In this document: one piece after another, positions 4,025 to 62,735 of the stretch
How the letters are laid out: each line of letters starts with the position of its first letter
Numbering within the stretch: position 1 is the stretch's first letter
Assembly (NCBI GenBank): GCA_043812155.1
Contig: JBDRMK010000007.1
Span: forward strand, 1-62,735
From: Patescibacteria group bacterium
GTDB taxonomy: Bacteria > Patescibacteriota > Patescibacteriia > JAXHNJ01
DNA: 62,735 nucleotides
Direction: 5' to 3'
Translations under genes and position numbers: made by a program
Notes under the pieces: generated by a model
The model's input: only the letters and a program-made list of their open reading frames with translations
Told to the model about the DNA's origin: nothing
Databases searched by the model: none

Positions 4025-4056
4025 AGACTAAATTAACAATTTAATAAATCATGGTT

Positions 4057-4365
4057 TAATGAGGCGTGGAACGGCGGCCTGTACCTTGGACGCTTGGGCC
4101 GTCGGGAGCAAATAGCGTAACCGGCATTATCTTTTTTTGCCGTGTTACAAAACGCCTCTATTATCAGGTGTTTTTTTGTGCCCTTTAACTTCAAAAAAGA
4201 AAGGAAAGGAGTCTTAATGAGGCGGAGCGGGTATCCCTGAATGAGGACGCCTTGTCTTCTTACACCGGTAAGGAGCGGGGGATACGCCCATAGTGTCGCT
4301 ATGGGTTACCGTTAGCAAGTGGCGTAACCGGCATTAAGTCGACTTGTTACGTATTGCGCCTCATT
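4057..4365 (+). ncRNA. two tandem related structured RNA domains (riboswitch-like leader), class unknown
   Basis: Both domains open with TAATGAGGCG (4057, 4215) and close with CGCCTC(T)ATT (4153-4163, 4356-4365). Both contain GCGTAACCGGCATTA with a gtaac..gttac helix. Confidence 0.5.
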
Positions 4366-14418: not shown

Positions 14419-15575
14419 TGTCTGTAAATTTAGTAAAATATAATATAAATATTAGTCTTGTTGAGCAAATACAAAATTTACTGCTTCCATTTAATATTAA
14501 TTTTGGTAAAAGAGTTTTTATAAAGTCAAATTTATCTGCTAGGCCGCCGGAAATCAAGGGTGAAAATACTTCATTATTATTTATTGATGCTTTAGTAAAA
14601 TATTTAATAAATAGTAAATGTTCAGAAATAATAGTCGGCCATTCTTCCTTGATTGGAACAAAAGAAAAATCTTATCCTTTTGAATTATTAATAAAAGCTT
14701 CTGGTTTTTATAAATTGTTAAATAATAAGCAGGTAACACTATTAGATCTTGATAACGTTGAGCGCCAGGAGATAGAAATAAATAGTTTTAAGTATAAAAT
14801 TCCAAAGATAATACATCAAGTTGATTCTTATATTAATTTGGGAGTTTTGAAGACTCACATGGAAACAACTGTGAGTCTCTCAATGAAAAACCAAATGGGT
14901 CTACTTGAATTATTTGGAAGAAAGGATTTCCACAAGAAGTCTTTAGAAAAACCAATTGCATATTTATCTAAAATGATAAAACCAAAAATTTCTATATTGG
15001 AGGGTATTATTGGAATGGAGGGTAATGGTCCTCACGATGGCACATCTAAAAAGGCTAATTTAATAATAGCAAGTGATAACATGTTAGAATTAGATACATT
15101 AGGATGTTATCTAATGGGTATTGATTATGAAAATATTGAACATATAAAAGAAGCCAAAAAAATAGGAGTAGGTAATTTTATTAATATAGAAACAGAAAAT
15201 AAATATAAAGATTATATAGTCAAATTTAAACAAGCAGAAAAAATAATTAGTTACGGAAAAAAAATAAAAGTATATCCTACTACTAGTTGTTCTTTTTGTC
15301 AGCAGGTATTAAGAACGGCAGGCAAAAAGTTAAAAAGTAATTTCAAAACAGCTATAATTTTTCTCTATAAAGCATATTTTTCAAAAAAGGAAATTCGCAT
15401 AATTATGGGTACGGGTAAAGGTTTGGAATCATTTGATAGTGATGATATTATTATACCAATAGGTATTTGTACAAAGGAATGGTGCGAAAAAAGAAATTTA
15501 AATGGTATTTACGGATGTCCTCCTGATATTAATATAGTTTCGGAATTAATTCTCAATAAGATTAAAGGTAAATAG
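14418..15575 (+). CDS. DUF362-like protein
   Basis: LKTHMETTVSLSMKNQMG and GMEGNGPH resemble the DUF362 core. Cys pairs at the C-terminus. Confidence 0.6.
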   Translation: MSVNLVKYNINISLVEQIQNLLLPFNINFGKRVFIKSNLSARPPEIKGENTSLLFIDALVKYLINSKCSEIIVGHSSLIGTKEKSYPFELLIKASGFYKLLNNKQVTLLDLDNVERQEIEINSFKYKIPKIIHQVDSYINLGVLKTHMETTVSLSMKNQMGLLELFGRKDFHKKSLEKPIAYLSKMIKPKISILEGIIGMEGNGPHDGTSKKANLIIASDNMLELDTLGCYLMGIDYENIEHIKEAKKIGVGNFINIETENKYKDYIVKFKQAEKIISYGKKIKVYPTTSCSFCQQVLRTAGKKLKSNFKTAIIFLYKAYFSKKEIRIIMGTGKGLESFDSDDIIIPIGICTKEWCEKRNLNGIYGCPPDINIVSELILNKIKGK

Positions 15576-20089: not shown

Positions 20090-20909
20090 TTTTATCCCTC
20101 GGGAAGTAAAAGTATTGGAAGTGTCAAAAGATTCCATTGACACTAAGCTTTTTACTTTGGCATATTCTGCCAAAAAGGAGCAGCAAGAATTTTCCTTTGA
20201 GCACGGACAGTTCATGATGTTCGGGCTTCCGGGGATAGGCGAATCCGCTTTTGATATATGCTCGTCTTCAAAAAATAATAAGAGATTTTTTCAATTAAAT
20301 GTCCGTTTAGTCGGCAAAGTGACCAAAAAATTGCATGAATTGAAAAAAGGCGGCACCGCCTGGGTCAGGGGGCCTTTTGGCCGGGGCTTTCCCATGAGGA
20401 AAATTAGTAACCGGAATTTGCTTCTGATCGGCGGCGGCTGCGGCAGCGTCACTTTGCGTTCTTTGATCCTTGACCATCTGGACGGTCGTCTAAATCCAAA
20501 AAATTCGGTTCAGGTTTTTTACGGCTGCTTGAACGAAAAAACTTTGCAGTTTAAGAATGAATACGGGCTTTGGAAAAAGAAAATAGAATTGAATATCGTT
20601 TTAGACAAGCCTTCGGCGGCCTGGAAAGGGGAGAAAGGCCTGATCACGAAATTATTTCAGACGGTAAAAATCGCGGCCAAGCCGGTGGCCATCCTTTGCG
20701 GCCCGCCGGTCATGTATAAATTCGTCATCGCCGAATTGAAAAAACTCAATGTTCCGGACGAAGATATTTATGTTTCTTTGGAAAGAAGGATGTCCTGCGG
20801 GATCGGCACCTGCCAGCACTGCGCGGTCGGTTCCAAATACGCTTGCAAAGACGGCCCGGTGTTCAGTTTAGCAGAGATAGGCTCAAGTCATATGTTAGGC
20901 GCTTATTAA
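20079..20909 (+). CDS. hydrogenase gamma subunit (FAD/NAD(P)-binding, 2Fe-2S; HydG-like)
   Basis: Ferredoxin-reductase-type fold motifs (LLLIGGGCG) and C-terminal CGIGTCQHC. Confidence 0.8.
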   Translation: MRNNFIPREVKVLEVSKDSIDTKLFTLAYSAKKEQQEFSFEHGQFMMFGLPGIGESAFDICSSSKNNKRFFQLNVRLVGKVTKKLHELKKGGTAWVRGPFGRGFPMRKISNRNLLLIGGGCGSVTLRSLILDHLDGRLNPKNSVQVFYGCLNEKTLQFKNEYGLWKKKIELNIVLDKPSAAWKGEKGLITKLFQTVKIAAKPVAILCGPPVMYKFVIAELKKLNVPDEDIYVSLERRMSCGIGTCQHCAVGSKYACKDGPVFSLAEIGSSHMLGAY

Positions 20910-47062: not shown

Positions 47063-47756
47063 CCTAAGTAAACCGGATGATCGCCCGCCTTCGCTCTGCG
47101 CTTTACGCTTGAGCTACGGCGGGCAAGCCCCTTTTTTTAGAGAAATAAGGGGGCCTGCCCGCCGAAGCCCGAAGTGAAACGTAGGGCGAAGGCGGGAGGA
47201 AAGTCCGAACACCTCTTTCGCCAGTTTTTGGCGAAAGAACAACGATAGTTCTTAACAAGAACCGAAGGGTAAGTGGTCAAAACGCTCGCGCGAATTTTTG
47301 ACGCTTTGCTTTTTAGGGAAAGTGCAACAGAAACATACCGCCGCAAGCCCTATTCACTTATCGGGGCTGGCAAGGGTGAAATCGTGTCCTCCTTCGTCTT
47401 CCTACGGAAGACTATGGCGGATTCTCCGAAACCAAACGCATTCTGTATCATCTTTGTTTTACAAGGATTGATACTCCGAAGCCTTGGCGAAGGAGTAAGG
47501 TAAGAGCTCACGCTTTTCCAAGGTGACTTGGAAAAGGGGAAAACCCTATCGGGTGCAAGACCAAAGTTATTTCCGGTTAAAATTTAGCCGGGGATGGGTA
47601 GGTCGCATGACTCCGGCCGCAAGGCCAGGGGCAAGAGAGATGATCATCCTGCCTTCGTCAAGACTTCGGCAGGCAAGCCCTCTTATTTTAAGGAGGGACT
47701 TGTCCACCGTAGCCTTGGCGAAGGTGGACAGAATTCGGCTTATAGGTTTACTTAGG
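47063..47756 (+). ncRNA. rnpB: RNase P RNA (bacterial type), unusually long because of GC-rich hairpin insertions
   Basis: P1 cctaagtaaacc/ggtttacttagg. Conserved blocks GGAGGAAAGTCCGAACAC (47196), AGTGCAACAGAAACATACCGCC, GGGTGAAA, GGTAAGAGCTCACG and ACAGAATTCGGCTTATAGG (47728). Confidence 0.85.
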
Positions 47757-50926: not shown

Positions 50927-52066
50927 ATGCGGATCGGCATTGACGCCCGTTTTTACGGCCCATTGACCAAGGGGCTAGGGCGTTATAGTGAAAAATTGAT
51001 TCAGTATTTGCAGGAATTGGACCACCAGAATGAGTATGTTATTTTTTTGAGGAAGGAGACTTGGGAAAAATTTCAGCCGAAGAACGCCAATTTCAAAAAA
51101 GTCTTGGCCGATTTTCGCTGGTATTCTCTGGCGGAGCAGATTAAAATGCCGGGTCTGATAAAAAAACAACACTTGGATCTAATGCATTTTCCGCATTTCA
51201 ACGTCCCGTTATTATATCGGGATAAGTTTGTCGTCACTATCCACGATCTTATATTAACTCATTTTCCCACCCAACGGGCCTCCACTTTAAGTCCTTTAGT
51301 CTATTGGCTGAAACATTTGGCTTACCGGCTCGTGATCCGACGAGCGGTGAAAAAAGCGGCCAGGATCATTACCATTTCCCAATATTCCAAAAAACAGATT
51401 ATTGCCAATTTCGGAGTGGCTCAAAATAAAATCGCGGTCACTTACGAAGCGACCAGTGATTTCAAGCCGACGCCGGCCAAAGTTTCCGAGGAGGATTTTT
51501 CCCTTAAATACAAGATCCAAAAGCCATATCTTTTGTACGTTGGCAACGCTTATCCCCACAAAAATTTAGAAAGATTAATTTCCGTGTTTAAGACTCTGGT
51601 CCAGGAGAAAAGCCTTGACTTGAAGCTGGTCTTTGTCGGCAAGCTGGATTATTTTTACACCCGATTGCAAAATCTGGTCAATGAATTAAAATTAGACCAT
51701 AAGGTGTATTTCTTGGGTTATGTCGAGGATGAAGAACTTAAATTTTTGTATCAGAATGCCTTGCTTTACGTTTTTCCTTCTCTTGAGGAAGGATTTGGCT
51801 TGCCGCCTTTGGAGGCGATGACCCAAGGCCTGCCTGTGGTGTCAAGCAAAGCTTCCTGTTTGCCGGAAATATTGAATGAAGCGGCTTACTACTTTGATCC
51901 GAAAAGCGAGAAAGAAATGGCTGAGGCGATTATTAAAATGACTAGTGATGGAAGTTTGAGAAATAATTATAAAGCTAAAGGAATTAACCAGGTAAAAAAG
52001 TACGCATGGCCGGTTTTGGCCCGAGAGACCTTAGAGATTTATCAATCAGCCATAAATAACCGATGA
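50927..52066 (+). CDS. glycosyltransferase (GT4-like)
   Basis: VFPSLEEGFGLPPLEAMTQGLPVVSS. Confidence 0.85.
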   Translation: MRIGIDARFYGPLTKGLGRYSEKLIQYLQELDHQNEYVIFLRKETWEKFQPKNANFKKVLADFRWYSLAEQIKMPGLIKKQHLDLMHFPHFNVPLLYRDKFVVTIHDLILTHFPTQRASTLSPLVYWLKHLAYRLVIRRAVKKAARIITISQYSKKQIIANFGVAQNKIAVTYEATSDFKPTPAKVSEEDFSLKYKIQKPYLLYVGNAYPHKNLERLISVFKTLVQEKSLDLKLVFVGKLDYFYTRLQNLVNELKLDHKVYFLGYVEDEELKFLYQNALLYVFPSLEEGFGLPPLEAMTQGLPVVSSKASCLPEILNEAAYYFDPKSEKEMAEAIIKMTSDGSLRNNYKAKGINQVKKYAWPVLARETLEIYQSAINNR

Positions 52067-54222
52067 ACAGCCATTATCAGAAAAATACCTCCAAAGATGA
52101 TCAAGAGGAATATTTAAAAAAAACACGGGTCCCCCGCGATAATGTTTTAGATTTAAAACATTTGTTTGCCCCGGAAGAAGAGGTGAAAAGAACCAGTCTG
52201 CGGGGTAAATTTAATCTGAGTAAATTTTGGCCAAAATTGCCCGCGGCAAAAAAAATAAAACTCGGCGGGCTGGTTATCGGCTGGAAAAATGTGATAGTTT
52301 TCGGGGTAGTCTGTCTCGTTTTGATATTGCCTTTTTTATGCGCCCAAGGCTATCAAGGTATAAATAATCTAAAAGGCCGGGTCTTGGGTGTTTCGGTGAG
52401 CGCTTTGGATAATTTAAAAAGCGCCGGGCTGGCTTTGAGCAATTTTGACATGGCGACCGCCGCCGACCGCTTCAATCAGGCGGAAAATGATTTTAACGCC
52501 GCTCAAAAAGAACTGAGCCAAATTAATGACGTAATTTTCGCCCTGATAAAAATCATTCCCTTTAAAGGGGAAACCGTGACTTCCGGCCAGCATCTGATTT
52601 CCGCGGGCAAGAATATCGCGGAAATAGGCCAGCTTATCAGCGAACAATTAAAGCCTTTAACCGGAGAGCTTAAACTTAAAGAAGGCGAACTGGTCGTTCC
52701 AAAAGTGCTGTTTTCATTCCGACAGAGCTTAGAAGTGGTGTCGGATAAAATGAAAGCGGTTAAAAACGATTTAGACAAGGTAAAGATCGAGAGTTTGCCT
52801 CAGGAATATCAGGTCCAGATTCTGAAAATCAGAGAGGCCTTACCGGCCTTGGATGAATATCTTGAAAAAAGCAAATCAATGTTTTCCGTCTTAACTTCTC
52901 TTTTAGGCCAGAATAAGACCCAGGAATTTATTTTCATTTTTCAAAATAACCGGGAAATAAGGCCGACCGGCGGTTTTATGGGCAGTCTGGCTTTGGTGAC
53001 GGCGAAGAACGGCGAGGTGAAAATTTTGGAAGTGCCGGGCCGGGGGCCGTACGAGATAAACGATGATCTGTCTGCCGACATAATTCCACCCAAGCCCTTG
53101 TGGCTGGTCAACAATAAATGGGGGATACAGGACGCCAACTGGTTTCCCGATTTCCCGGCCACAGCCCAAAAAATAAACTGGTTTTATGAACTGTCCCGCG
53201 GCTTTTCCGTGGACGGCATCGTGAGCCTTACCCCGGATATTATTATTGATCTGTTGAGAATAACCGGACCGATAACTTTGGATAAGTACGAAACCGTGAT
53301 CACCGCCGATAATTTCATTGAAAAAACCCAGCTTAAGGTGGAAGTGGAGTATGATAAAGCGACTAACCAGCCTAAAGCCATAATCGGAGACTTGATCCCG
53401 CTGCTTTTAAATAAAGTTTTAAAGACCAAGCCCGGCGATTTTCTGGAACTGGCAAAGGTTTTACAAAAAGCGGTGTCAGAAAAAAACCTGCTGATCTACG
53501 CCAAAGACGAAAATTTGGAAAAAGAATTGATTGACCTGGATTTGGGCGGTGAGATCAAAACCGCGCCTAAAGATTATCTAATGGTGGTCAATACCAATAT
53601 CGGCGGCGGGAAAACCGACGGCGTGATTAGGCAGGAAATTTTACACGAGGTTTCTTTTTATTCTGACGGCGAGATTGTAGATACTTTAACAATTAAACGG
53701 ACGCATCAAGGTGATCCTAATAATTCTGTTACTAAAATAAAAAATATGGATTATTTAAGAGTTTATGTGCCGGCCGGCGCCGAACTTTTAAGCGCTTCCG
53801 GTTTTAGCGAGATCGATAAAAATTTGCTTAAATATCCTGATGAAAAGGCGGTTGAAGACAAGGATCTGATGAATATTGAAAAAGATCCGGTGATTGACGA
53901 AAGAAGCAACACGCGGATAACTTCTGAATTCGGCAAGACTTGTTTTGCTAATTGGTTAAACGTGGAAGTGGGAGAAAGCAAGGAAGTTGTTCTAAAATAT
54001 AAACTGCCCTTTAAACTTGAAGAGGCGGGTGTTTATTCTTTGTATTTACAAAAACAGCCGGGAGTAAACGATTCCTCGTTCACCGGCACTTTAACCCTGC
54101 CTTCAGATTTCAGCTTAATCCAAGGCTTGCCCGAAGGCATAATTAAAGATAATGAGGTTAATTATCAAACAACCATTAATGAAGATAAGGTTTACGGCGT
54201 GGAATTGGATAAATTAGAATAG
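52063..54222 (+). CDS. DUF4012-like membrane-anchored protein
   Basis: N-terminal TM segment, FIFQNNREIRPTGGFMGS block, 719 aa, EPS context. Confidence 0.65.
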   Translation: MNSHYQKNTSKDDQEEYLKKTRVPRDNVLDLKHLFAPEEEVKRTSLRGKFNLSKFWPKLPAAKKIKLGGLVIGWKNVIVFGVVCLVLILPFLCAQGYQGINNLKGRVLGVSVSALDNLKSAGLALSNFDMATAADRFNQAENDFNAAQKELSQINDVIFALIKIIPFKGETVTSGQHLISAGKNIAEIGQLISEQLKPLTGELKLKEGELVVPKVLFSFRQSLEVVSDKMKAVKNDLDKVKIESLPQEYQVQILKIREALPALDEYLEKSKSMFSVLTSLLGQNKTQEFIFIFQNNREIRPTGGFMGSLALVTAKNGEVKILEVPGRGPYEINDDLSADIIPPKPLWLVNNKWGIQDANWFPDFPATAQKINWFYELSRGFSVDGIVSLTPDIIIDLLRITGPITLDKYETVITADNFIEKTQLKVEVEYDKATNQPKAIIGDLIPLLLNKVLKTKPGDFLELAKVLQKAVSEKNLLIYAKDENLEKELIDLDLGGEIKTAPKDYLMVVNTNIGGGKTDGVIRQEILHEVSFYSDGEIVDTLTIKRTHQGDPNNSVTKIKNMDYLRVYVPAGAELLSASGFSEIDKNLLKYPDEKAVEDKDLMNIEKDPVIDERSNTRITSEFGKTCFANWLNVEVGESKEVVLKYKLPFKLEEAGVYSLYLQKQPGVNDSSFTGTLTLPSDFSLIQGLPEGIIKDNEVNYQTTINEDKVYGVELDKLE

Positions 54223-54238
54223 CAGCGTAATTCAGCAG

Positions 54239-54247
54239 TTATCCACA
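54239..54247. promoter_or_regulatory. perfect DnaA-box 9-mer
   Basis: TTATCCACA immediately after the DUF4012 stop. Confidence 0.45.
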
Positions 54248-54249
54248 AA

Positions 54250-54271
54250 GGCCAGATGTTGGCCTTTTTTT
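54250..54271 (+). terminator. intrinsic terminator
   Basis: ggcca-gatgt-tggcc followed by TTTTTTT. Confidence 0.75.
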
Positions 54272-54383
54272 AATATCCAAAAAACAGGCATTTTTGACTG
54301 ATTTTGCCTTGTTTTTGATCATATTAAATAATTAATTTAACCTAACATTAGGCAAAAATAGACTGGGGTGGGGATAACCCCCC

Positions 54384-54412
54384 TTGACAATAAAACCAGG
54401 CCATTCTATATT
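54384..54412 (+). promoter_or_regulatory. sigma70-like promoter at the left edge of the island
   Basis: A GC hairpin ggggtggggataacccc abuts TTGACA, then a 17-nt spacer and TATATT. Confidence 0.55.
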
Positions 54413-54873
54413 GACCAGTTAAGTGAAAAGAGGGAGAGAGACAAAGTCTTAGAGGAGGGGACTTTGACAACCAAATAAGAGTGAGGAGAAAGAGGAGAGA
54501 GAACCGATTTTTATATAGTCGGTAATAGAAGATTTATATTAAAGTGTTTTTAATATTGAAAAAGGGCTCTCTCCAAATATGTTGGTAGGGTCCTTTTTTG
54601 TTGGCTTATTATCTTAATGAGAGAAAAGGAGGGTAGTTAAGGCGTTCTCCCCGAAAGGGCTTGGAACGACCGAGGCCTGAGAGAAAGTCAGGGCAGGAAT
54701 TATCTTGCCCTAGAACTTTCACGAAAGGCCGGGCCTGGTCTCAAATCAATCGATATGAGAATCAAGCCGCACTATCCTTCTGTTCTCTCCTTAAAGATCT
54801 TTGAGGAGCAAGGAGGGGAGGGGGTCTAGTATCCTCTCTCTTCCTACCGTAGTTTTCCTTGAAAAAAAATAAA

Positions 54874-55016
54874 ACCTCCAGGGTAGTCACAGGGAGGGTG
54901 AGAAAATCATTTCGGATGATGTTGAATGTTTGGTCGGGTTTACTCGATCATCCACTCACTTCATCTTTAGGCCTGTTCTTTTTTTAAGAAAAGATTGCCA
55001 TTTTATTCTCACCTCC
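54874..55016 (+). repeat. diverged member (R0) of the SD/anti-SD-ended structured repeat family
   Basis: 5' ..cctccaggg..agGGAGGGTGAGaaaat and 3' attttattCTCACCTCC are inverted. It shares the ttaggcc-hairpin-gattgcca-ttttatt-ctcacctcc layout with R1 and R2. Confidence 0.4.
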
Positions 55017-55080
55017 GTGTGCGTGCTCTGGATTACATAACAAACGTTTGGATAAGGAATTCCGAAATGAAGAAGTGATT

Positions 55081-55320
55081 ATGTTCAAAGTATTGATTAT
55101 TGTCGGTACTATGATAGTAATTCGTCGGATACTTAATCTTCATTTCCATATTACCAAGCATGGCGTTCATCGCCCTGTATGGTGGATATGGAAAGATGAA
55201 GGCTGCTGGCGTTATATTCCTCGTGAATACGATCCCAGCGAAATGCGGGAATGTACTTGCTGCGGGAAGGCGTTCTGGCGGGCGAAAGGAAGTATCTTCT
55301 GGCAGGCAGTTTGCCATTAA
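55081..55320 (+). CDS. possible small TM plus Cys-rich protein
   Basis: MFKVLIIVGTMIVIRRIL... then CTCCGK. Several overlapping ORFs exist on both strands, so the call is uncertain. Confidence 0.3.
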   Translation: MFKVLIIVGTMIVIRRILNLHFHITKHGVHRPVWWIWKDEGCWRYIPREYDPSEMRECTCCGKAFWRAKGSIFWQAVCH

Positions 55321-55587
55321 ATCTTTGTTCTTTTCTAAAGGATATATTCCAGGCCAGTCTTTGGCCAAAACCGGGGAACGAGATTGCCATTGCTTCAAAG
55401 CTTTCGCATCACTCTCGTCCCCCGGACTTTTTCAAGGGCATTAATGCTTTAGTGCCTTAGAAAAAGTCCAAATTAATTTGGACATTGTTCTTCTTTAAGA
55501 GATGCCCCACAAAGGTATCTCCCCGCTAAGACCAGTTTACTGGTCATCCCCGGGGGAGTCGTATCAAAGACCCGATTCCTCCATTCC

Positions 55588-55618
55588 CTTGAGAGCATTG
55601 AAACAAAATGCTTTCAAG
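55588..55618 (+). promoter_or_regulatory. leader hairpin (cttgagagcatt / aatgctttcaag)
   Basis: Paralogous to 56118-56153. Followed by agagtgaaagtgg.. and an SD. Confidence 0.5.
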
Positions 55619-55669
55619 AGAGTGAAAGTGGTCAGGTAGATTTTGACAACTCGAACAGGAGGTTCTGAA

Positions 55670-55855
55670 ATGACTTGGAAAAAGGTAGGTTTATCAAACT
55701 GCGGGATGCTGCTGTTCGTGCTCGGTTTCGGGCCGCTCGGGGTCAACCATTGGTTGACTCATACGATCGGTTGCGGACTGATCTTCGGCGGTTTGACGCT
55801 GACGCTTACCATTGTGTTGACGCCAAGCCCGTCGGTAAAGGAGGCAATAAGATGA
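55670..55855 (+). CDS. small 2-TM protein (61 aa)
   Basis: SD caggagg 7 nt upstream. MTWKKVGLSNCGMLLFVLGFGPLG...GLIFGGLTLTLTIVL. Confidence 0.6.
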   Translation: MTWKKVGLSNCGMLLFVLGFGPLGVNHWLTHTIGCGLIFGGLTLTLTIVLTPSPSVKEAIR

Positions 55856-56046
55856 AAGCCATCTGTATACTTCTGGTAACGGTGGATGCGTGCCTATACT
55901 TGGCCGCGATTACCGTTCTGGCAACGCTAATGCCGCCATATTACGTGGTATGCGTTGTCCTGGGGGTCGGCATATACGATTTCATCGCCACTACTCGGTT
56001 TTCTCGCCGTTGGTGGCAGATGACAAGGAGAATCCTCGGCCGGTAG
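55852..56046 (+). CDS. small 2-TM protein (64 aa), translationally coupled
   Basis: ATGA start/stop overlap with the previous ORF, SD aaggagg upstream; MKAICILLVTVDACLYLAAITVL... Confidence 0.6.
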   Translation: MKAICILLVTVDACLYLAAITVLATLMPPYYVVCVVLGVGIYDFIATTRFSRRWWQMTRRILGR

Positions 56047-56117
56047 CCATATCGGCCATTATGCACCTTCTTGCACAACCAACCTTTGGGGGGTCCGAAA
56101 CAGCAACGACCCCCTAT

Positions 56118-56153
56118 CTTCCGAGAGCATTAAAAGATTAGTGCTTTCAGAAG
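56118..56153 (+). promoter_or_regulatory. leader hairpin (cttccgagagcat / gtgctttcagaag)
   Basis: Same design as 55588-55618. Followed by agaatgaagtcgg.. and SD taaggagg. Confidence 0.5.
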
Positions 56154-56194
56154 AGAATGAAGTCGGCTGTTTGTAAATTTTAAGGAGGTCAGTC

Positions 56195-56368
56195 ATGCGT
56201 GAGATTCTTATCAATTTACTGATATCAAGTATTGCGTGTGTCATCTTGGCGATTGGATTGAATGCAAATCATAAGATTCAGCTTGGAATCAGCATCTTGG
56301 CGACCATACAGGTGATTTTGGGAAGCCTCAATTTTGTTCTTATATCCCGTAAGAACAGAATAAAGTAG
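56195..56368 (+). CDS. small 2-TM protein (57 aa; below the ORF-track cut-off)
   Basis: SD aaggagg 6 nt upstream. MREILINLLISSIACVILAIGL...ISILATIQVILGSLNFVLI. Confidence 0.55.
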   Translation: MREILINLLISSIACVILAIGLNANHKIQLGISILATIQVILGSLNFVLISRKNRIK

Positions 56369-56641
56369 AGGCAACGCACTTTTACCCGAGAGAGAGATCC
56401 GCTTCTAGCGCTTTTTTCTCTCGGCTTTCCCAAGCTAAGCAATAAATTGGTTAGCTTAGGAAAGAGTTCTTTGACACGCCTCCGTCTCCCTGCGGGAGAT
56501 TTCGGCGCGCGAGACTCAGTAAAACCATGTTTATTTCTGTTTGGCAAGCCCTGATGTTTGTCATCGGGTATTCCGTTGAGCTTGACCAAAAAATCCCATG
56601 GCCATGAGCCACAGGATTTGAGAAACGGGTATTTTGAAAAT

Positions 56642-56935
56642 TTAATATTCCAGTTTAACCTTAACTTTACGCGCCAGCTGGCGGATTAGGTCTTCCAGGC
56701 GGGCAACCTCTTTATAAAGAGCGCGGTCAAGCTTAGCTTCTATTCTTGATAGGCGTTGGCCGTGATCAGAGAGTTCCTCGTGAATAACTTGTAAATCCTG
56801 CTTAGTTGCCATGTCCTTAATATCCTGTTTCGTTGCCATATCGGCAATATCGCGTTTAGTTGCGGTTTCGTCAAAACCACGGGCCACCATCCTGGCCAAT
56901 TCATTCAGAGTAATTTGTTTTTTTGACTTTTTCAT
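56642..56935 (-). CDS. coiled-coil protein with a short tandem peptide repeat
   Basis: TKRDIADMATKQDIKDMATKQDLQ repeat followed by a heptad-like C-terminus. Has its own promoter. Confidence 0.65.
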   Translation of the reverse strand: MKKSKKQITLNELARMVARGFDETATKRDIADMATKQDIKDMATKQDLQVIHEELSDHGQRLSRIEAKLDRALYKEVARLEDLIRQLARKVKVKLEY

Positions 56936-56973
56936 AATCTATCTTCCTATTTAGCCGCCAAAACTGCTTACTT

Positions 56974-57002
56974 ATTATAGTTTAGCCTTTAAAAAGCGTC
57001 AA
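56974..57002 (-). promoter_or_regulatory. sigma70-like promoter (minus strand)
   Basis: Minus strand reads TTGACG, 17-nt spacer, TATAAT. Confidence 0.55.
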
Positions 57003-57056
57003 GATGCATTAATATATTAAATATAAATCCGTCTTATCAGCTCTTTGACTAAAAAT

Positions 57057-57246
57057 CTTTCTTCGCCACCTCCATGGAGGGTGAGTCTCCCTGTCGAAAG
57101 ATAGGGCAATCGACTGGGGATATATTGATTGTTTAACTTGGTTTCACTAAGTTAAATTAGTTGATTATCCCTTAGGCCCTTTACTTCTTAACCGGGTAAA
57201 GATCAGCCAAATTAAACTCACCTCCAGTGAGGTGGTGGAAGAAGAA
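57057..57246 (+). repeat. structured repeat R1 (about 190 nt) with inverted SD-like / anti-SD-like ends
   Basis: 5' cgCCACCTCCatgGAGGGTGAG and 3' CTCACCTCCagtGAGGTGGtg. The internal long hairpin is gggatatattgattgtttaactt / aagttaaattagttgattatccc. Confidence 0.6.
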
Positions 57247-57297
57247 ACAACGGTTTCAGAAAGACTGCTAGAAAAGGCGGTCAAGAAAGGAGTCGTC

Positions 57298-57549
57298 ATG
57301 GACGACTATGAAGGCAGTTTTCGCCAGGAAGGTCAGCAAGCGTATAATGCTTGGCTGAAACAGATGCTCATAATGGCTCTCGTTATATTCGGGGTTTTGA
57401 TTGTCGCAATCTGGGTTATTCCTCTGGCAATGTGTCACGGCTTGCAGATTCATAGCAAGGTGATGACGCAAGCCAAGATTGCCGCTACGGTCATTGGCGT
57501 ATTGGGTATCGTGTTGGGCTTTTGGTCAATTTGTTCCGAAAGGAAATGA
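57298..57549 (+). CDS. small 2-TM protein (83 aa)
   Basis: ATG behind aaaggag. The ORF-track GTG start (57232) lies inside repeat R1. Confidence 0.6.
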   Translation: MDDYEGSFRQEGQQAYNAWLKQMLIMALVIFGVLIVAIWVIPLAMCHGLQIHSKVMTQAKIAATVIGVLGIVLGFWSICSERK

Positions 57550-57810
57550 ACTCGACCAAGTAGTACCTACGGTTTTACGGGCGTCTGCCAGCCTAAGATG
57601 GTAGAGTTTTTCTCATGAAAAGAAGGATTGATGACGTACGAACCTTAGGTGGAGGTGAGACCACCTTAAAAAACACTAAAAGATATGGCGGCGGACGCCT
57701 GAAACTGAAGTTCCGCGGGGGCTTGAGCGCACAACTAAGTCTTAAGCCCCTTCCTTCTCAAGCCGACAATGAATTGCCGGTTTAAGAAGGAAAAGTTCTT
57801 TATATCAAAC

Positions 57811-57999
57811 CTTTCTCCGCCACCTCTATGGAGGGTGAGTTGACCCTGTCGAATGACGGGGGCAATCGACTGGGGATATATTGATTGTTTAACTTGGTTT
57901 CACTAAGTTAGATCAGTTGATTATCCCTTAGGCCCTTTACTTCTGAAAAGAGTAAAGACAAGCCAATTTAACTCACCTCCAGTGAGGTGGCGGAAAGAA
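57811..57999 (+). repeat. structured repeat R2, direct copy of R1
   Basis: Roughly 85-90 percent identical to R1 by eye, including a 48-nt identical block. The closing pair changes from ggtggtg to ggtggcg. Confidence 0.6.
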
Positions 58000-58060
58000 T
58001 AATTAATTTAAGTATTGAACTTTTCAGGCAGTTATTCAACCTTTGCTAGGAGGTACGGTC

Positions 58061-58798
58061 ATGAACGGTAGAATCAGCAAGACGGGAGACGCCGGTTACT
58101 TTTTTATCGCCGGCGATGACGGGGGCAACTACTATTCCCGCGACGAATGGGTCTATTCCAGCTTCCGTGGCAGGATCGAACTCAACGCCCGGGTGGAGTT
58201 TCAGACCCGGGTATGGCAGGGAAAGCCGCAGGCTTTCGCGGTCAGAGCGGAAGCTTTAGCCGCGTCGCAAGCCAAGTCGGTCAGGACCGTCAAGTTTGAC
58301 GAGCACCACGATGGCCGGCTTCAGCTTCTTCACTCCATTCTGGAGGAGGGAAGGAAGCCGAGCGATGATGAGCAGAAAACGCTCTTCGCGGTGTGGCTGA
58401 CGGATGCCCAGGGGCATCTGCTCACGGATCAGTACGACTGCGGAAACTGCGCCCGGCACCCGCGCTTCTACCGGCAAAGGTTCGACGGACTCTACGTCGT
58501 GACCTTCGGCCAGGATTACCCCGCGGTGATTCTCTGTGAGAAGTGCCGCCGTCGCTTCTCCCAGCTGTACCCTTCGTGCCAGACGAATATCAGTCCGCTC
58601 TATGATACCCTGGAAAGACTCGGTATTCGGCCGAACGGTCGCGGCTGGACTCTCGGTCAGGCCGCCAATTCCCATCGTCGGGAAAAGAATCGGCGAATCA
58701 TCAAGCCGATTTTCCAGGCTTCGGAAAAGGCCCGGCAGAGCAATGAAGAGCTCGTCGAGAAGTTCTCGAAACGCTGGCGCGAGCAGAAGACCGCCTGA
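58061..58798 (+). CDS. cold-shock-domain-like N-terminus plus CxxC..CxxC zinc-ribbon protein
   Basis: SD aggagg. GRISKTGDAGYFFIAGDDGGNYY...RVEFQ...GKPQAFAV follows the Csp pattern (KGFGFI..DDG...V.F...G..A..V). Also CGNCARH...CEKCRRR. Confidence 0.65.
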   Translation: MNGRISKTGDAGYFFIAGDDGGNYYSRDEWVYSSFRGRIELNARVEFQTRVWQGKPQAFAVRAEALAASQAKSVRTVKFDEHHDGRLQLLHSILEEGRKPSDDEQKTLFAVWLTDAQGHLLTDQYDCGNCARHPRFYRQRFDGLYVVTFGQDYPAVILCEKCRRRFSQLYPSCQTNISPLYDTLERLGIRPNGRGWTLGQAANSHRREKNRRIIKPIFQASEKARQSNEELVEKFSKRWREQKTA

Positions 58799-58920
58799 CA
58801 TCGTATAAAAATTAGGAAGGGGCTCGCAAGACTTGAAATACAGTTTTGTCCGCCCCTTCCGCTCTCTTGAGCCTATCAGAAAAAATCTGGTAGACTGAAG
58901 AGAGTTCTTTGAGAAAAAAG

Positions 58921-59042
58921 TTGGCAGCGGTTCGTCTGTTAGCATATAGCCTATGGCTTATGGCATATAGTTTGTTTGTTTAGTAGTTTTTTCCATAAGC
59001 TATAGGCTATAAGCCATACGCTAGCAGTTGGGCCGCTGCCAA
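58921..59042. repeat. low-complexity long hairpin, no ORF
   Basis: ttggcagcgg..gcatatagcctatggcttatggcatatag // ccataagctataggctataagccatacgc..ccgctgccaa. Confidence 0.6.
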
Positions 59043-59045
59043 TCC

Positions 59046-59183
59046 TGTTTGACCCGAAATCAGACAGTAAAATAATCGGGTGAGCGATTATTTTTGCCGA
59101 TAAGGCGGCAAATGAGGGCCCGAAACCCTCGACTGTTACCCGGACCCGAAATCCGGATTTCATACCGACGGCCCGAAACCGTC
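59046..59183 (+). promoter_or_regulatory. array of four stem-loops with an identical CCCGAAA loop
   Basis: tgtttga-CCCGAAA-tcagaca (59046), gaggg-CCCGAAA-ccctc (59114), ccgga-CCCGAAA-tccgg (59140), gacgg-CCCGAAA-ccgtc (59167). The SD and ATG follow at 59192-59206. Confidence 0.6.
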
Positions 59184-59203
59184 ATAAATCAGGGAGGTTC
59201 GAA

Positions 59204-59761
59204 ATGTCGAACGTATATGTTGAGAGGCTCGAAGCGGAATACCGCCGAGCCAGCAATCTGGTCAAGTTCTTCGTCGGGTGTTTGATCATCGTCGGTCTCG
59301 TTCTGGTCCTTTGCTTCAAGCCGTTTTTTGGTGATCGTCCGGCTTTGGACTCCCTGTGCTGGAGCACGGGAATTGTCGTCGTCGGCATCGGCGCCGCCGC
59401 ATTTCTTCTGATGGAAATGAAGAAGAAGATGGTTGATGGCCAAGTGGATAAGGCTTTCAAAAACTTCTTCGGGTTTTATCCGCAGATCGCCGATATAGAG
59501 CAGTTTTCGGTCACGGCCGAAGGCATGGTGAGGAATCAGCTTAAAATCAAGTCTGCCCTACTGAAACAGACGCTGGGAGCGAAAGATGCGCTCAAGTCCG
59601 CGATCAAAGAGGGCAAGATGACCAAGGCTTTCCAGTACATCAATCGCTGCCTTAAGCAGGATGTTGATGAGATCTTCAACGCGTACGATGCCGCGATGTA
59701 TCGCGGCTACCTGCGCGACGTGCTCAAGGAGAGGTCCCTCGAAGCCCTAGCTTCGCTCTAA
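59204..59761 (+). CDS. 2-TM protein with a helical soluble C-terminal domain (185 aa)
   Basis: SD agggagg 6 nt upstream, two hydrophobic segments, then a charged helical tail. Confidence 0.7.
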   Translation: MSNVYVERLEAEYRRASNLVKFFVGCLIIVGLVLVLCFKPFFGDRPALDSLCWSTGIVVVGIGAAAFLLMEMKKKMVDGQVDKAFKNFFGFYPQIADIEQFSVTAEGMVRNQLKIKSALLKQTLGAKDALKSAIKEGKMTKAFQYINRCLKQDVDEIFNAYDAAMYRGYLRDVLKERSLEALASL

Positions 59762-59846
59762 TCTCTGATTACCTGTCTCACCGCAGGTAATTGATCTTTG
59801 GAAGGGGAGCGAACGTTTTGAAAAATTCGTTTGCTCCCCAACCTAC

Positions 59847-59875
59847 TTGAGTCCGCAATTAATAAAGTGTATAAT
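59847..59875 (+). promoter_or_regulatory. sigma70-like promoter
   Basis: TTGAGT, 17-nt spacer, TATAAT. Confidence 0.5.
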
Positions 59876-59932
59876 TGTAGGCTCAAATAGGTTCATTGAA
59901 AGTTTTAAAACAACTAGCGCGGAGGTTATGAC

Positions 59933-60355
59933 GTGAAGAAGATTAGTTTGATTGAAGTCTTTATTGGTATAGTCGTGGTGGCTTTGCTCGCGGCAGTCTT
60001 GTCACCTTCATTGACTCTCTGGCTGGTACGGGCTCGGGAAGCGGAGTTCGCGGTCAATTATTCCGCTGTCCAGAAAGCAGCCGAGGATTTCGCTATTCAG
60101 AATTACGGCCGTTTTCCTCGGAATATCGATAAAGATAAAACGCCGTCCGGACAAACGCTTCGGGATATCGTGTCTGCATACGACAGCATTTCTAATCCGT
60201 TCACCAAGAACGGGGTCACGGTAGTAATCAACGGGATAGCCTGGAAGATTGGGCAGGTCGGATACTTGCCAAATTTTCAGGACAGTATCCCGGTCGGCTG
60301 TACGATTACCGCCGTTGGTATTATAGGTGATACAGTCATCGTCTGTCCAAAGTAA
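59933..60355 (+). CDS. pilin/pseudopilin-like protein (atypical N-terminus)
   Basis: GTG behind ggagg. MKKISLIEVFIGIVVVALLAAVL resembles a class III signal but lacks the Gly before the cleavage site. DFAIQNYGRFP resembles the GspG-type Y..dnG.yP segment. Confidence 0.55.
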   Translation: MKKISLIEVFIGIVVVALLAAVLSPSLTLWLVRAREAEFAVNYSAVQKAAEDFAIQNYGRFPRNIDKDKTPSGQTLRDIVSAYDSISNPFTKNGVTVVINGIAWKIGQVGYLPNFQDSIPVGCTITAVGIIGDTVIVCPK

Positions 60356-60367
60356 CGGAGGTTAGTG

Positions 60368-60766
60368 ATGAGAAAAGCCTTGATTTTCGCCTTGATTTTT
60401 TTGGCCGTAGTCGGCGGGCTCTCCCTTCGTTCCTATATCCTTGAGAAGAAGGAACTGAATGATGTCCGCCGGATCTGCTCTTTCTATTATGCTGTGGCCG
60501 TCCATTATGAGGAATTGAACGGCCGACCGCCGGAGTCGTTATCGGCCAAAATCGGCGGCACGACTCTGGCTGATTCGATCGTTACTCGGTGTTCCGAAGC
60601 AGGGATACCGGTAATCTCCATGGATTCGATGATGGTCTATAAGGACGTCATCGAGATCCGGCATGCGCCATGTATCACTATGAATCTCGATAGCAGTTTT
60701 GCAGTATACTGGAAGGAGGATTTTACAGAACATCTGTACGCCGTATACTCGCCAAGCGGTGAGTAG
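60368..60766 (+). CDS. second TM-anchored pseudopilin-like protein
   Basis: ATG behind ggagg. N-terminal hydrophobic helix, then HYEELNGRPPESL. Confidence 0.5.
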   Translation: MRKALIFALIFLAVVGGLSLRSYILEKKELNDVRRICSFYYAVAVHYEELNGRPPESLSAKIGGTTLADSIVTRCSEAGIPVISMDSMMVYKDVIEIRHAPCITMNLDSSFAVYWKEDFTEHLYAVYSPSGE

Positions 60767-60888
60767 GGAATTGCCCTTTTTTCGTCATATCGGGCACGTT
60801 CAAGTCCAACTCTTCGGACGTGCCTTCCTTCCTAGGTCATTATTACTACCAAAATAGTGGCTTGAGAAGGGTAATATTTATTAACCCC

Positions 60889-60916
60889 TTGACATTTTAT
60901 TCAATATAGTTATATA
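60889..60916 (+). promoter_or_regulatory. sigma70-like promoter at the right edge of the island
   Basis: ccccTTGACA, 16-nt spacer, TATATA. Confidence 0.5.
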
Positions 60917-60922
60917 TTGAAG

Positions 60923-61066
60923 ACAGAAAGCTGTCTGTAAGCCTAAAATCAAGAATTTCTGTGGCAATAGCAAATCTCTCTCCTCTTGTTTTAGAAACGC
61001 AAGTTTTTAAAGCAAAGCTACTGAACAGTCATTCTCAAATTTACAAAGCTTACAGGCAGCTTTTTG
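60923..61066 (+). ncRNA. candidate small RNA (about 140 nt)
   Basis: A 14-nt 5' segment agctgtctgtaagc (60929-60942) pairs with gcttacaggcagct (61048-61061) and is followed by TTTTT. It lies just downstream of the promoter. Confidence 0.4.
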
Positions 61067-61130
61067 CGTTTACTTTATTTTTTCGCTTTGAAACTGGGTT
61101 GGTTATTGTTATTTTAAGCATACTGCTGGT

Positions 61131-61650
61131 TAAATTCCAAATTTCAAGCATCAAATTTCAAATAAGCTCCAAATTTCAAAACCAAAATTCAAAACACAAG
61201 GTTATTTGGATTTTTCAATTATAGAACAGAAGATTTTCTTGAGCTCAATGGATTCGTTAAAAAGGAAATAGCCTTGTTTTTGGATATCTTCTTTATTGGT
61301 TTCCATTAACAATCTTAGCCAATAGGCGGATTCTTTCGCTTCTTTGCGGCAAATTTTTGCTCTTAAAAGAAAATCTTTTCGGCTCAAAGACTCATTGGCC
61401 TCAATATAATTGGCACCAACAGAACCGGCTGATCTTACCACTTGTTTTTTATATTCCAAGTTGGCCGCCGTGTAGGGTATTTTTTGCGTATAAAGAGCGA
61501 CGTTTTTGGCGAACTTAAAACATCTTTCCTCTAAGTCATAGTATTTGTTTCGGTCATTGAAATTTTGGTCATTGTCCGCCCGAGGCGGAACAGCCTTGGG
61601 CTGAGGATTTATTTGTGTTTTGGGATTTGTGATTTGGTGCTTAAACATAA
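61131..61650. repeat. hairpin cassette whose loop carries a four-helix-bundle gene (minus strand)
   Basis: The arm taaattccaaatttcaagcatcaaatttcaaataagctccaaatttcaaaaccaaaattcaaaacac mirrors ggatttatttgtgttttgggatttgtgatttggtgcttaaac. Confidence 0.65.
61202..61648 (-). CDS. four-helix-bundle protein (IVS/Avd-like family)
   Basis: YDLEERCFKFAKNV...KKQVVRSAGSVGANYIEANES.SRKDF..RAKICRKEAKES.YWL. The start MFKHQITNPKTQ is encoded by the arm. Confidence 0.85.
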   Translation of the reverse strand: MFKHQITNPKTQINPQPKAVPPRADNDQNFNDRNKYYDLEERCFKFAKNVALYTQKIPYTAANLEYKKQVVRSAGSVGANYIEANESLSRKDFLLRAKICRKEAKESAYWLRLLMETNKEDIQKQGYFLFNESIELKKIFCSIIEKSK

Positions 61651-61739
61651 AAAGAGGCCTTCCAAAGCCACCTATCACAATTATATAAAAAGCGCGGCCA
61701 GTTGTCAAAAGCGCGAATTTCTGTTAAAATTCGTTTATT

Positions 61740-62735
61740 ATGTTTGGTAAAATATGGCATAAATTGCAAACAACCGTGGCCGGGGGAGCGATGATCATCG
61801 CTTTTGCTTCTATTATTTCCCGCCTTTTAGGATTATTGCGCGACCGCTTGTTCGCCTCCACTTTCGGAGCAGGGGATATTTTGGACAGCTACTACGCGGC
61901 CTTCCGTTTGCCGGACCTTATTTTTAATGTTTTGGTCTTAGGCGCCCTTTCCGCCGCTTTTATCCCGGTATTTTTGGAATATTGGCAAAAAGATAAAGAA
62001 GGGGGTTTTACCCCCAAGGAAGCCTGGCGGATCACCAATTCCGTTTTAAACATTTTTTGCCTGATCCTTGTTTTTTTAGGCTTGATATTTTTTATTTTTG
62101 CTCCCCAGATCACTTCCTGGATAACGCCCGGTTTTTCTCCGGAAAAACAGGCGATGACCATGAAATTGACCCGGATAATGCTTTTATCAATAATATTTTT
62201 TGGCGTTTCCAATATTATCGGCAGTATTCTTAATTCTTTCCGGAAATTCGTCGCTTTTGCTTTCGCGCCGGTGATGTATAATATCGGAATTATTCTGGGC
62301 ATTACGTTTTTTTACAAATGGTGGGGGCTGGCGGGTCTGGCCTGGGGTGTTGTCTTAGGCGCTTTTTTGCATATGGTTATTCAGCTGCCTTCGGTCTTGA
62401 AGACCGGCTATCATTACCAATGGCTTTTTGATTTTCACCATCCCGGCGTCAAAAAAATGTTCCGCCTTATTCTGCCCCGTACTTTCGGCCTGGCGGTGGG
62501 TCAGATCAACCAGCTGGTGATCACCATTGTCGCTTCTTTTCTGGCGGCCGGGTCGCTGGCCGTTTTTAATCTGGCCAATAATCTGCAGAGTTTTCCCATT
62601 AATGTCTTTGGCGTTTCTTTGGCCATTGCCGCTTTTCCTCTGATGAGCGAGGCTTTTGCTTCCCGGTCCACGGAAAAATTCGTGGTCCAGTTTTCCGTCA
62701 CTTTGCGCCGGGTTTTATTTTTGATTATTCCCGCC
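61740..62735 (+). CDS. murJ: lipid II flippase MurJ (MviN), 3' end outside the window
   Basis: The open frame from the ATG at 61740 reads ...ISRLLGLLRDRLFASTFGAGDILDSYYAAFRLPDLIFNVLVLGALSAAFIPVF. It is absent from the ORF track because no stop lies in the window. Confidence 0.88.
   Translation, partial: MFGKIWHKLQTTVAGGAMIIAFASIISRLLGLLRDRLFASTFGAGDILDSYYAAFRLPDLIFNVLVLGALSAAFIPVFLEYWQKDKEGGFTPKEAWRITNSVLNIFCLILVFLGLIFFIFAPQITSWITPGFSPEKQAMTMKLTRIMLLSIIFFGVSNIIGSILNSFRKFVAFAFAPVMYNIGIILGITFFYKWWGLAGLAWGVVLGAFLHMVIQLPSVLKTGYHYQWLFDFHHPGVKKMFRLILPRTFGLAVGQINQLVITIVASFLAAGSLAVFNLANNLQSFPINVFGVSLAIAAFPLMSEAFASRSTEKFVVQFSVTLRRVLFLIIPA

Follow-up and report, generated by a model that had tools for sequence, protein, structure and literature searches.

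Anti-Shine–Dalgarno (anti-SD) and anti-anti-SD pairings form the translational expression platforms of riboswitches. The type I toxin mRNAs hok, tisB and aapA1 rely on long-distance pairing between their 5′ and 3′ parts and on metastable hairpins. In the Bacteroidia, genomes poor in SDs set SD:anti-SD pairing aside for special regulation (PMC7797042, PMC9976891, PMC13000453). Here we analyse contig JBDRMK010000007.1 of a Patescibacteria group bacterium (GCA_043812155.1; forward strand, 62,735 nucleotides (nt), called the window), in which three copies of a structured element, R0, R1 and R2, lie between a DUF4012 gene and murJ. The element is ~145–190 nt long, is read from the + strand and belongs to a family, not described before, of structured RNAs in leaders or intergenic regions that contain an SD/anti-SD pairing. 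Like SD-sequestering leaders, it pairs a CCUCC anti-SD to a GGAGG partner upstream of SD-led genes, several of which have small hydrophobic products. Unlike in these leaders, the SD-like strand is separate from the SD of the gene and the element is a self-contained domain 47–900 nt upstream. As in hok, tisB and aapA1, local hairpins would compete with a long-range closing helix in one subtype (type B), but the open reading frames (ORFs) downstream encode proteins of 79–245 residues, including pilins, while type I toxins are hydrophobic, shorter than about 60 residues and paired with a cis-antisense RNA.

The preliminary description of this locus recognised R1 and R2 as direct copies and R0 as a diverged member, and both assignments stand. 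R1 and R2 are 91–94% identical in ungapped blocks and 91% identical in a model-guided alignment, and their similarity ends at the element borders (57053–57240 against 57807–57995). R0 is recovered by a covariance model with 117.5 bits (E = 3e-26), and other genomes have its orthologs in the corresponding syntenic position. The borders of R0, first set at 54874–55016, are better placed as in Table 1, with a common core that runs from GGAGGGTGAG to CTCACCTCC. The sequence CTCACCTCC occurs four times in the window against 0.26 expected. The fourth occurrence, on the minus strand, comes from a hairpin (UUAGGUGG-AGGUGAGA-CCACCUUAA, carrying GGAGGUGAG) in the spacer between the ORF at 57298 and R2, and this hairpin may be a fragment akin to a type-B terminus.

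In the fold of all three copies, a long helix (P1) closes a three- or four-way junction. The complementary 5′ and 3′ ends noticed earlier are the strands that close this multi-branch fold, with a minimum free energy (MFE) of −81.5 kcal/mol for R1 and −93.4 kcal/mol for R2 (z = −7.9 and −10.4 against dinucleotide shuffles; z = −4.5 for R0). The outer stem of R1 and R2 is formed by CGCCACCUC/GAGGUGGYG and prolonged by CUUUCUU/GAAGAAG. Below it, a 3×3 internal loop leads to the inner stem GGAGG-G-UGAG/CUCA-CCUCC with a bulged G, and then to the hairpins P2, P3 and P4. R0 has the inner stem, P3 and P4 in common with R1 and R2, has no P2 and carries a different outer stem. The general plan of the family is thus a three-way junction with P3 and P4, which becomes four-way where the optional P2 is present. 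The inner-helix strand CUCACCUCC matches 8 nt of the canonical 16S rRNA 3′ tail. Each end of R1 and R2 is also able to fold on itself with −7.5 to −9.6 kcal/mol, as had been proposed, but the further proposal that the element switches between a closed rod and two terminal hairpins is strongly disfavoured. Compared with the closed form, the two-hairpin state is less stable by 19.6 kcal/mol in R1 and 24.8 kcal/mol in R2, and the 5′ CACCUCC that it requires is present only in the subtype of R1 and R2. At best, the two-hairpin state would be a kinetic intermediate during transcription.

The fold is preserved across copies by paired changes. In an alignment of 15 copies fitted to the covariance model, 37 of 48 base pairs have changes on both sides. 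Standard pairs occupy 92.5% of the cells, compared with 39–46% after the 3′ partners are slid by 1–3 columns, and none of 500 shuffles reached the observed values. An independent check with MAFFT and RNAalifold on eight syntenic copies returned the same P1, P3 and P4, and 25 of the 40 pairs were compensatory. Compensatory substitutions freely alter the outer closing stem, P3 and P4. One such change had been pointed out in P4, CTTTAC/GTAAAG against TCTTTT/AAAAGA; it is real and generalises across copies, while ggtggtg against ggtggcg, listed beside it, is a one-sided change from G-U to G-C. The GGAGG/CCUCC and UGAG/CUCA pairs of the inner helix almost never vary. The exceptions are a compensatory U-A to C-G change in the copy L020b, CCCCC in L021b and L024, and GGGGG in L023 (L numbers denote the relatives' contigs introduced below). 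Three pairs near the tip of P3 (G-U, G-C and U-A, the G-U being invariant) and the junction sequence UUUAGG are conserved as well. Scores of the covariance model are 34–183 bits on the + strand and 16–38 bits on the reverse strand. From the covariation and this strand bias, we consider it highly probable that the element is an RNA structure under selection on the + strand.

Relatives were found in two ways. Scans of sequence collections with exact patterns gave one genome-contig match, a single copy in a 608-kb Patescibacteria metagenome-assembled genome (L001), which is syntenic with the window (glycosyltransferase, DUF4012, element, then small ORFs). The same scans gave four matches in metagenomes, of which two are new and real in sequence terms; one of these, L013, is of R1 type and lies on a short contig. 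The metagenome matches L011 and L014 look like chance. Further contigs were chosen by DUF4012 homologs of 37–83% identity, and covariance models built from 5 and then from 15 copies were run over 191 kb in total, namely the window, the loci of the relatives and the 10-kb upstream flanks of six relatives. This yielded 17 copies in nine Patescibacteria genomes or contigs: three in the window, three in L018 (the same genome as L001), two each in L020, L021 and L022, and one each in L013, L015, L017, L023 and L024. L020 has in addition a truncated 3′ half. All 17 lie on the gene strand, upstream of ORFs and between the DUF4012 and MurJ genes, and outside this interval the models found no copy in the 191 kb. 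The number of copies is a minimum for the family, since the exact patterns used on the collections are insensitive and the models covered part of the genomes. As far as could be seen, the family is restricted to one Patescibacteria lineage.

Two subtypes can be told apart. Type A (R0, L015a, L017a and L018a; 65–80% mutual identity) is always the first element after DUF4012, and its place is shared by eight genomes or contigs (the window, L015, L017, L018, L020, L021, L022 and L023). Type B (R1, R2, L013, L018b and L018c; 70–91% identity) has the outer stem CGCCACCUC/GAGGUGGCG. Since both types occur in the window and in L018, whose DUF4012 proteins are only 58% identical, they are old paralogs. 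Local duplication has continued recently, as seen in R1/R2 (91% identity) and L018b/L018c (88%). The truncated copy in L020 (P4 and the 3′ strand of P1, 86% identical to L020b) overlaps the end of a called ORF. Its similarity runs past the 3′ end of the element, so it is best explained as the remnant of a segmental duplication.

Such duplicates, with similarity that ends at or near their borders, and the inverted termini would also fit a miniature mobile element (MITE, repetitive extragenic palindromic (REP) or PATE-like) or an attC-like site, with the fold as a by-product of terminal inverted repeats. A mobile origin was one of the possibilities raised at the outset, and a Y1 transposase gene does lie near the island in L020. 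But no target-site duplications were seen in the flanks of 15 copies, and all 17 copies sit in one syntenic island, with none dispersed over the 191 kb that the models covered. Each of the two types, A and B, has been passed down across genomes, and the truncated copy in L020 arose by segmental duplication. Pairing extends and covaries beyond the conserved core. The conserved inverted core lies inside the element, whose outer 9 bp covary; the outermost repeats of a MITE would be conserved and akin to those of an autonomous element. The internal three-way junction is kept through G-U pairs that are functional on one strand only. There are no matches in phages or plasmids; in viral contigs, exact patterns gave no real match, and nine loose ones were rejected by the covariance model. 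With E values allowed up to 10, Rfam 15 (4227 families) gave no + strand match for any of R0, R1 and R2, a scan of the L018 copies gave nothing, and the surrounding region and the right end of the window gave nothing relevant. The element resembles REP/BIME, Correia, ERIC and RUP MITEs in being a short repeated intergenic element with paired ends that is incorporated into mRNAs; it differs from them by its low copy number, single locus, absence of target-site duplications, compensation of a branched fold across species and constraint on one strand. Because target-site duplications, dispersed copies and phage, plasmid or Rfam matches are all missing, and the repeats around the L020 transposase are unrelated, a mobile element is highly improbable.

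An attC site does not agree with ends of the form CGCCACC...GGTGGYG or GGAGGGTGAG...CTCACCTCC, with the branched fold or with the absence of R''/R' (GTTRRRY/RYYYAAC) cores. A link to REP sequences and their associated transposase (RAYT) was rejected. The RAYT-type Y1 transposase of L020 is flanked on both sides by arrays of unrelated REP hairpins, GCCACTTCAGTGGC and GCGACTAAAGTCGC, and this segment looks like a REPtron in a Patescibacteria genome. A coding element is excluded by stops in all frames and by frame-breaking indels between R1 and R2. Retrons, diversity-generating retroelements, bridge RNAs and omega RNAs were dismissed, with no reverse transcriptase, recombinase or TnpB adjacent and with R1/R2 differences that are not adenine-specific; an RVT_3 match at 46570 is an RNase H-like domain.

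The island that contains the elements stands apart in its translation signals. In the window, GGAGG or AGGAG occupies the SD position of 1 of 40 core genes and of 8 of 9 island genes. In L018, L020, L021, L022 and L024, counted on database gene calls with a slightly broader set of SD 5-mers, the figures are 2/51 and 27/32. Pooled, SDs precede 3 of 91 core genes and 35 of 41 island genes (Fisher p = 2.8e-22). Core genes have A/T-rich start contexts. GGAGGT is about 10-fold denser on the + strand of the island (1.07 per kb) than of the core (0.11 per kb). CACCTCC occurs on this strand nowhere in 54 kb of core and four times in the island, in each case inside an element. This near-exclusive use implies that these genomes run SD-led initiation almost solely in the island. 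The situation recalls the "SD-blind" translation of Bacteroidia (PMC7797042, PMC9976891, PMC13000453), where SDs are nearly absent from ordinary genes and kept in a small special set. That small SD regulon concerns rpsU/bS21 autoregulation, whereas the SD set found here is a variable envelope and pilus island in another phylum, and no structured RNA comparable to the element is described for the Bacteroidia. The retention of SDs in a small special set suggests that SD:anti-SD pairing is used as a regulatory device and not as the default.

The island SDs have the form (A)GGAGG(U), to which the strand CUCACCUCC is complementary. We propose, with a probability of roughly 0.4, that the element is a cis-acting leader or intercistronic RNA that acts on SD-dependent initiation of the island genes. 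In this model, CUCACCUCC would be a cis anti-SD that is kept inactive by the upstream GGAGG strand, an anti-anti-SD, within the folded domain. With the junction domain folded, the gene's own SD would be free. If the closing helix failed or opened, the anti-SD strand could mask the downstream SD; alternatively, the exposed GGAGGGUGA strand could capture 30S subunits. Opening might be triggered by co-transcriptional events, a bound factor or cleavage. The link to translation suggested earlier is strengthened by findings that go beyond the preliminary description: GGAGG-type SDs are nearly confined to the island, and the GGAGG/CCUCC helix is the one near-invariant part of the element. The switch proposed at that time is not family-wide.

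The arrangement of genes is consistent with such a leader. Plus-strand ORFs do lie downstream of R0, R1 and R2, at 55081, 57298 and 58061, as had been noted. Type-B copies end 47–134 nt before a start codon, and no terminator was seen between them and their ORFs. The gene upstream of R1 (56642–56935) is on the opposite strand, so R1 and the ORF at 57298 must share a promoter within 56936–57297, upstream of R1; none resembling a promoter was found between R1 and that ORF. Small membrane-like proteins are encoded downstream of R1, L013, L018a, L022a and L022b, and a secreted protein after L018b. Some pairings of element and gene are kept between genomes. L020b and L021b precede orthologous type IV pilins, and the genes after R2 and L018c encode homologous N-terminal domains (the first ~63 residues of the 245-residue protein; 35% identity, E = 6e-6). 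Folding predictions for nine leaders also agree in part. When the 5′ strand of P1 was blocked in silico, the probability that the SD is unpaired fell from 0.95 to 0.05 in L020b, from 0.50 to 0.13 in L013 and from 0.60 to 0.30 in L022a, with smaller falls in L018c and L018b.

Several observations weigh against this proposal. R1, R2 and L021b show no predicted fall in SD accessibility upon the same blocking, so that occlusion of the SD, as first imagined for the window, is predicted for other leaders of the family and not for R1 and R2. Opening of the closing helix costs 20–25 kcal/mol. The copies with CCCCC in place of CCUCC (L021b and L024) have downstream SDs without a matching change. The window's own ortholog of the pilins has no element. 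The distance from element to start codon is variable, and type-A copies are separated from the next SD-led ORF by 250–900 nt that contain other hairpins.

The placement of type A points to a second possibility, a stable processed noncoding RNA that acts in trans, for example as part of a ribonucleoprotein or as a decoy with masked SD and anti-SD; a structured small RNA was among the options raised at the outset. In 6S, signal recognition particle, RNase P and Y RNAs, pairing between the two ends guards against exonucleases, and the closing helix of the element is long and stable. Type A keeps one syntenic spot in eight genomes or contigs at its large distance from the next ORF, two or three paralogs are maintained in genomes of ~0.6 Mb, and the conserved P3 tip (GGU..ACU) and junction UUUAGG suggest a binding partner. 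Yet no copy has an intrinsic terminator or a clear promoter of its own, type B stays close to start codons with some conserved gene pairings, and no Rfam family matches. We hold a trans-acting role to be possible, though doubtful. A broader view can also be framed. The genomes would have two translation regimes, an SD-independent core and an SD-dependent envelope and pilus island regulated by dedicated R RNAs, in which a super-SD (GGAGGGUGA) and a segment that imitates the 3′ tail of 16S rRNA (CUCACCUCC) are both masked. Unmasked R RNAs could then titrate free anti-SD ribosomes or the SDs of island mRNAs, and their folding might be set during transcription by a BoxA/Nus complex. We see this wider scheme as unlikely.

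A BoxA-like motif, also given as AGUUCUUUGAC, does precede the elements. At R1 it ends ~10 nt upstream of the model core, directly against the extended stem, the same motif follows a hairpin before R2, a degenerate form follows a hairpin before R0, and type-B copies in general begin ~12 nt after it. It belongs to a second repeat family that occupies nearly every gap of the island, a hairpin followed by (A)GTTCTTT(G/A)A(C/T)(T/A)AA 25–60 nt before the next start codon. The motif agrees with the BoxA consensus GYTCTTTAANA (PMC5725501) at 9–11 of 11 positions, perfectly at 15140 and 17020 of L020. Literature searches for the GUUCUUUGA variant of BoxA were dominated by unrelated text. In ribosomal RNA (rrn) leaders, a boxB hairpin and boxA are followed by a long-range stem that is cut by RNase III, and folding is assisted by Nus factors (PMC6614797, PMC5725501). 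The order at the elements is alike: a hairpin, a GYUCUUU(R)A motif and then an untranslated structured RNA whose distant flanks pair in a long helix with an internal loop. It differs from rrn in that the RNA is ~170 nt and not rRNA, and in that the motif also precedes ordinary island ORFs and may be the U-tract of a terminator.

This likeness raises the possibility that the element serves RNA processing, stability or folding and takes no part in translation. As a site for RNase III-type cleavage or as a barrier to exonucleases, its 25-bp closing helix would determine how long the individual segments of a long island transcript persist, and Nus-complex assistance of folding at the BoxA-like motif might apply. 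Besides the hairpin and motif before type-B copies and in most island gaps, the long-range helix with its internal loop would suit this role, and so would the position of promoters. One strong promoter per genome examined was found, at the island head. The window and L018, the two genomes scanned, showed no other strong sigma-70-type promoter, and this one is shared by L015, L017 and L018 (11/12 matches in L018). A purely structural role leaves the constancy of GGAGG/CCUCC unexplained while the other helices covary, and an equally good reading of the BoxA-like motif is a terminator stem with the U-tract UUCUUU. A module of this kind is unlikely.

The three-way junction, in which stems covary and nucleotides at the junction are conserved, could alternatively be the aptamer of a ligand-sensing riboswitch, for a second messenger for instance, with P1 as the switching helix. 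Several copies per genome stand before pilin, membrane and uncharacterised genes, and c-di-GMP riboswitches show a gene set of this pilin and membrane type. The P1 of 18–25 bp is far longer and more stable than is usual for the switching helices of riboswitches, P2 is optional, the junction sequences differ between subtypes, and the downstream genes share no common biochemical theme. Sensing of a ligand is thus improbable. The element is like the orphan "motif" families of Rfam, which are covarying multi-stem junctions upstream of genes known from sequence comparison only; the near-invariant SD/anti-SD helix and the very long P1 set it apart from the riboswitch candidates among them.

New RNA motifs are common, but a near-invariant SD:anti-SD helix together with an SD-only island in SD-poor genomes is unexpected. 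In the ultra-small Patescibacteria, regulatory RNAs are poorly charted and protein regulators few, and our literature searches found nothing specific on a described Patescibacteria motif or on SD usage in the group. The family adds a new fold with a ready covariance model and offers a testable link to how SD-poor lineages organise translation initiation. If the element gates an SD channel that serves pili and surface proteins, the finding would be relevant to how episymbionts control their contact with hosts. If the element is a processing module only, it would be an ordinary but new RNA motif.

Table 1. Positions of the elements and of neighbouring features in the window and, where a contig is named, in relatives.
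Feature	Position	Strand	Description
R0, type A	54881–55028	+	118.1 bits in a second covariance model
R0 outer stem	54888–54891 with 55018–55021	+	CACA with TGTG, beside a G.G mismatch
R0 inner helix	54893–54902 with 55008–55016	+	GGAGGGTGAG with CTCACCTCC, near-invariant
R0 hairpins	P3 ~54914–54966; P4 ~54970–54999	+	P3 long
R1, type B	57057–57246 (model core 57064–57237)	+	182.7 bits
R1 outer stem	57064–57072 with 57229–57237	+	CGCCACCTC with GAGGTGGTG, prolonged by CTTTCTT/GAAGAAG
R1 inner helix	57076–57085 with 57217–57225	+	GGAGGGTGAG with CTCACCTCC, after the 3×3 internal loop
R1 hairpins	P2 57089–57106; P3 57116–57171; P4 57175–57208	+	
R2, type B	57811–57999 (model core 57818–57992)	+	179.7 bits
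R2 inner helix	57830–57839 with 57972–57980	+	GGAGGGTGAG with CTCACCTCC
Block 4	54616–54792	+	possible very diverged fourth paralog, weak matches of model R2, membership uncertain
BoxA-like or U-tract motif before R1	57039–57054	+	AGCTCTTTGACTAAAA
Hairpin and motif before R2	~57752–57790 and 57794–57803	+	AGTTCTTTAT
Hairpin and degenerate motif before R0	54804–54838 and ~54850–54868	+	AGTTTTCCTTGAAAA
Hairpin plus motif, window	55424–55469; 55590–55625; 56127–56160; 56431–56474; 57752–57803; 58850–58920		second repeat family
Hairpin plus motif, L020	13510–13565; 14554–14609; 15098–15153; 15640–15695; 16978–17033		second repeat family
Hairpin plus motif, L018	17240–17300; 18800–18860		second repeat family
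Variable island of small ORFs	54223–61754	+	from DUF4012 gene (52063–54222) to murJ (61755 to window end)
ORF after R0	55081–55320	+	79 residues, hydrophobic N-terminus, Cys-rich C-terminus, no SD, no Pfam match
ORF 61 nt after R1	57298–57549	+	83-residue membrane-like protein, SD AAAGGAG
ORF 69 nt after R2	58061–58798	+	245-residue protein, SD AGGAGGT
Sigma-70-type promoter, island head	54384–54412	+	TTGACA-17-TATATT, 11/12 matches
Island-head promoter, L018	12449–12477		
Promoter-like sequence, weak candidate	56989–57018	+	TTAAAA-18-TATATT, consensus match only
Hairpin in the spacer before R2	57644–57667		carries GGAGGUGAG
Truncated copy, L020	17363–17446		
RAYT-type Y1 transposase with hairpin arrays, L020	20099–21181 (transposase 20367–20903)		
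DnaA-box-like sequence	54239–54247		TTATCCACA
DUF4012 terminator hairpin	54247–54267		
Candidate small RNA or attenuator	54384–54606		
Four-way junction around block 4	54609–54855		same fold in L015 (7780–8027) and L017 (6931–7178)
Imperfect palindrome	58921–59042		upstream of ORF 59204
Intervening-sequence protein homolog	61202–61708	−	
RNase P RNA	47146–47689		bacterial class A
c-di-GMP-II riboswitch match	4051–4135		GAG variant

The island has the same borders in L020, L021 and L024, and the right end of the window lies in murJ. Its G+C content over 54223–60766 is 0.47, compared with 0.425 in the core, and its products are small membrane, secreted and pilin proteins. The ORF after R0 is the sole island ORF without an SD. 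For the 245-residue protein after R2, sequence searches of Pfam, NCBIfam and the PDB gave no function; neither this protein nor the DUF4012 protein of the window has a database record.

Model R2 gives block 4, which lies upstream of R0, 21 bits in the window, against 27.5 bits in L015. The block has a long closing helix in which AGGAGGGTAG is paired to CTATCCTTCT and which encloses three hairpins. The region around it folds with an MFE of about −111 kcal/mol for 247 nt into a stable four-way junction followed by a hairpin, with AGGAGGGUAG in its closing helix; L018 has only a simple hairpin at this position. To judge from sequence and predicted fold, this structure may be a distant paralog of the element.

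Before it, the island-head promoter is followed by ~180 nt rich in GGAGAGAG, which occurs three times. The stretch ends in a terminator-like hairpin with the 5′ arm CUCUCUCC and then U6. This candidate small RNA or attenuator is conserved in L015, L017 and L018. At the very start of the island, a perfect DnaA-box-like TTATCCACA stands before the DUF4012 terminator hairpin and is invariant in four genomes. Matches to TTATCCACA with at most one mismatch number 27 in the window against 13.7 expected, but there is no DnaA-box cluster after DUF4012, and a replication origin was rejected.

Another kind of long structured leader in the same island is an imperfect palindrome of ~120 nt (48-nt arms, 75% complementary) that follows AGTTCTTTGA. 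The 23S rRNA intervening-sequence protein family (four-helix bundle, Avd-like) has a homolog (E = 1e-12) encoded between the island and murJ, with no rRNA or intron signal nearby. Elsewhere in the window, the RNase P RNA scores 113 bits and reaches 544 nt through large insertions (model length 367), and the c-di-GMP-II match scores 47.6 bits, above the gathering score.

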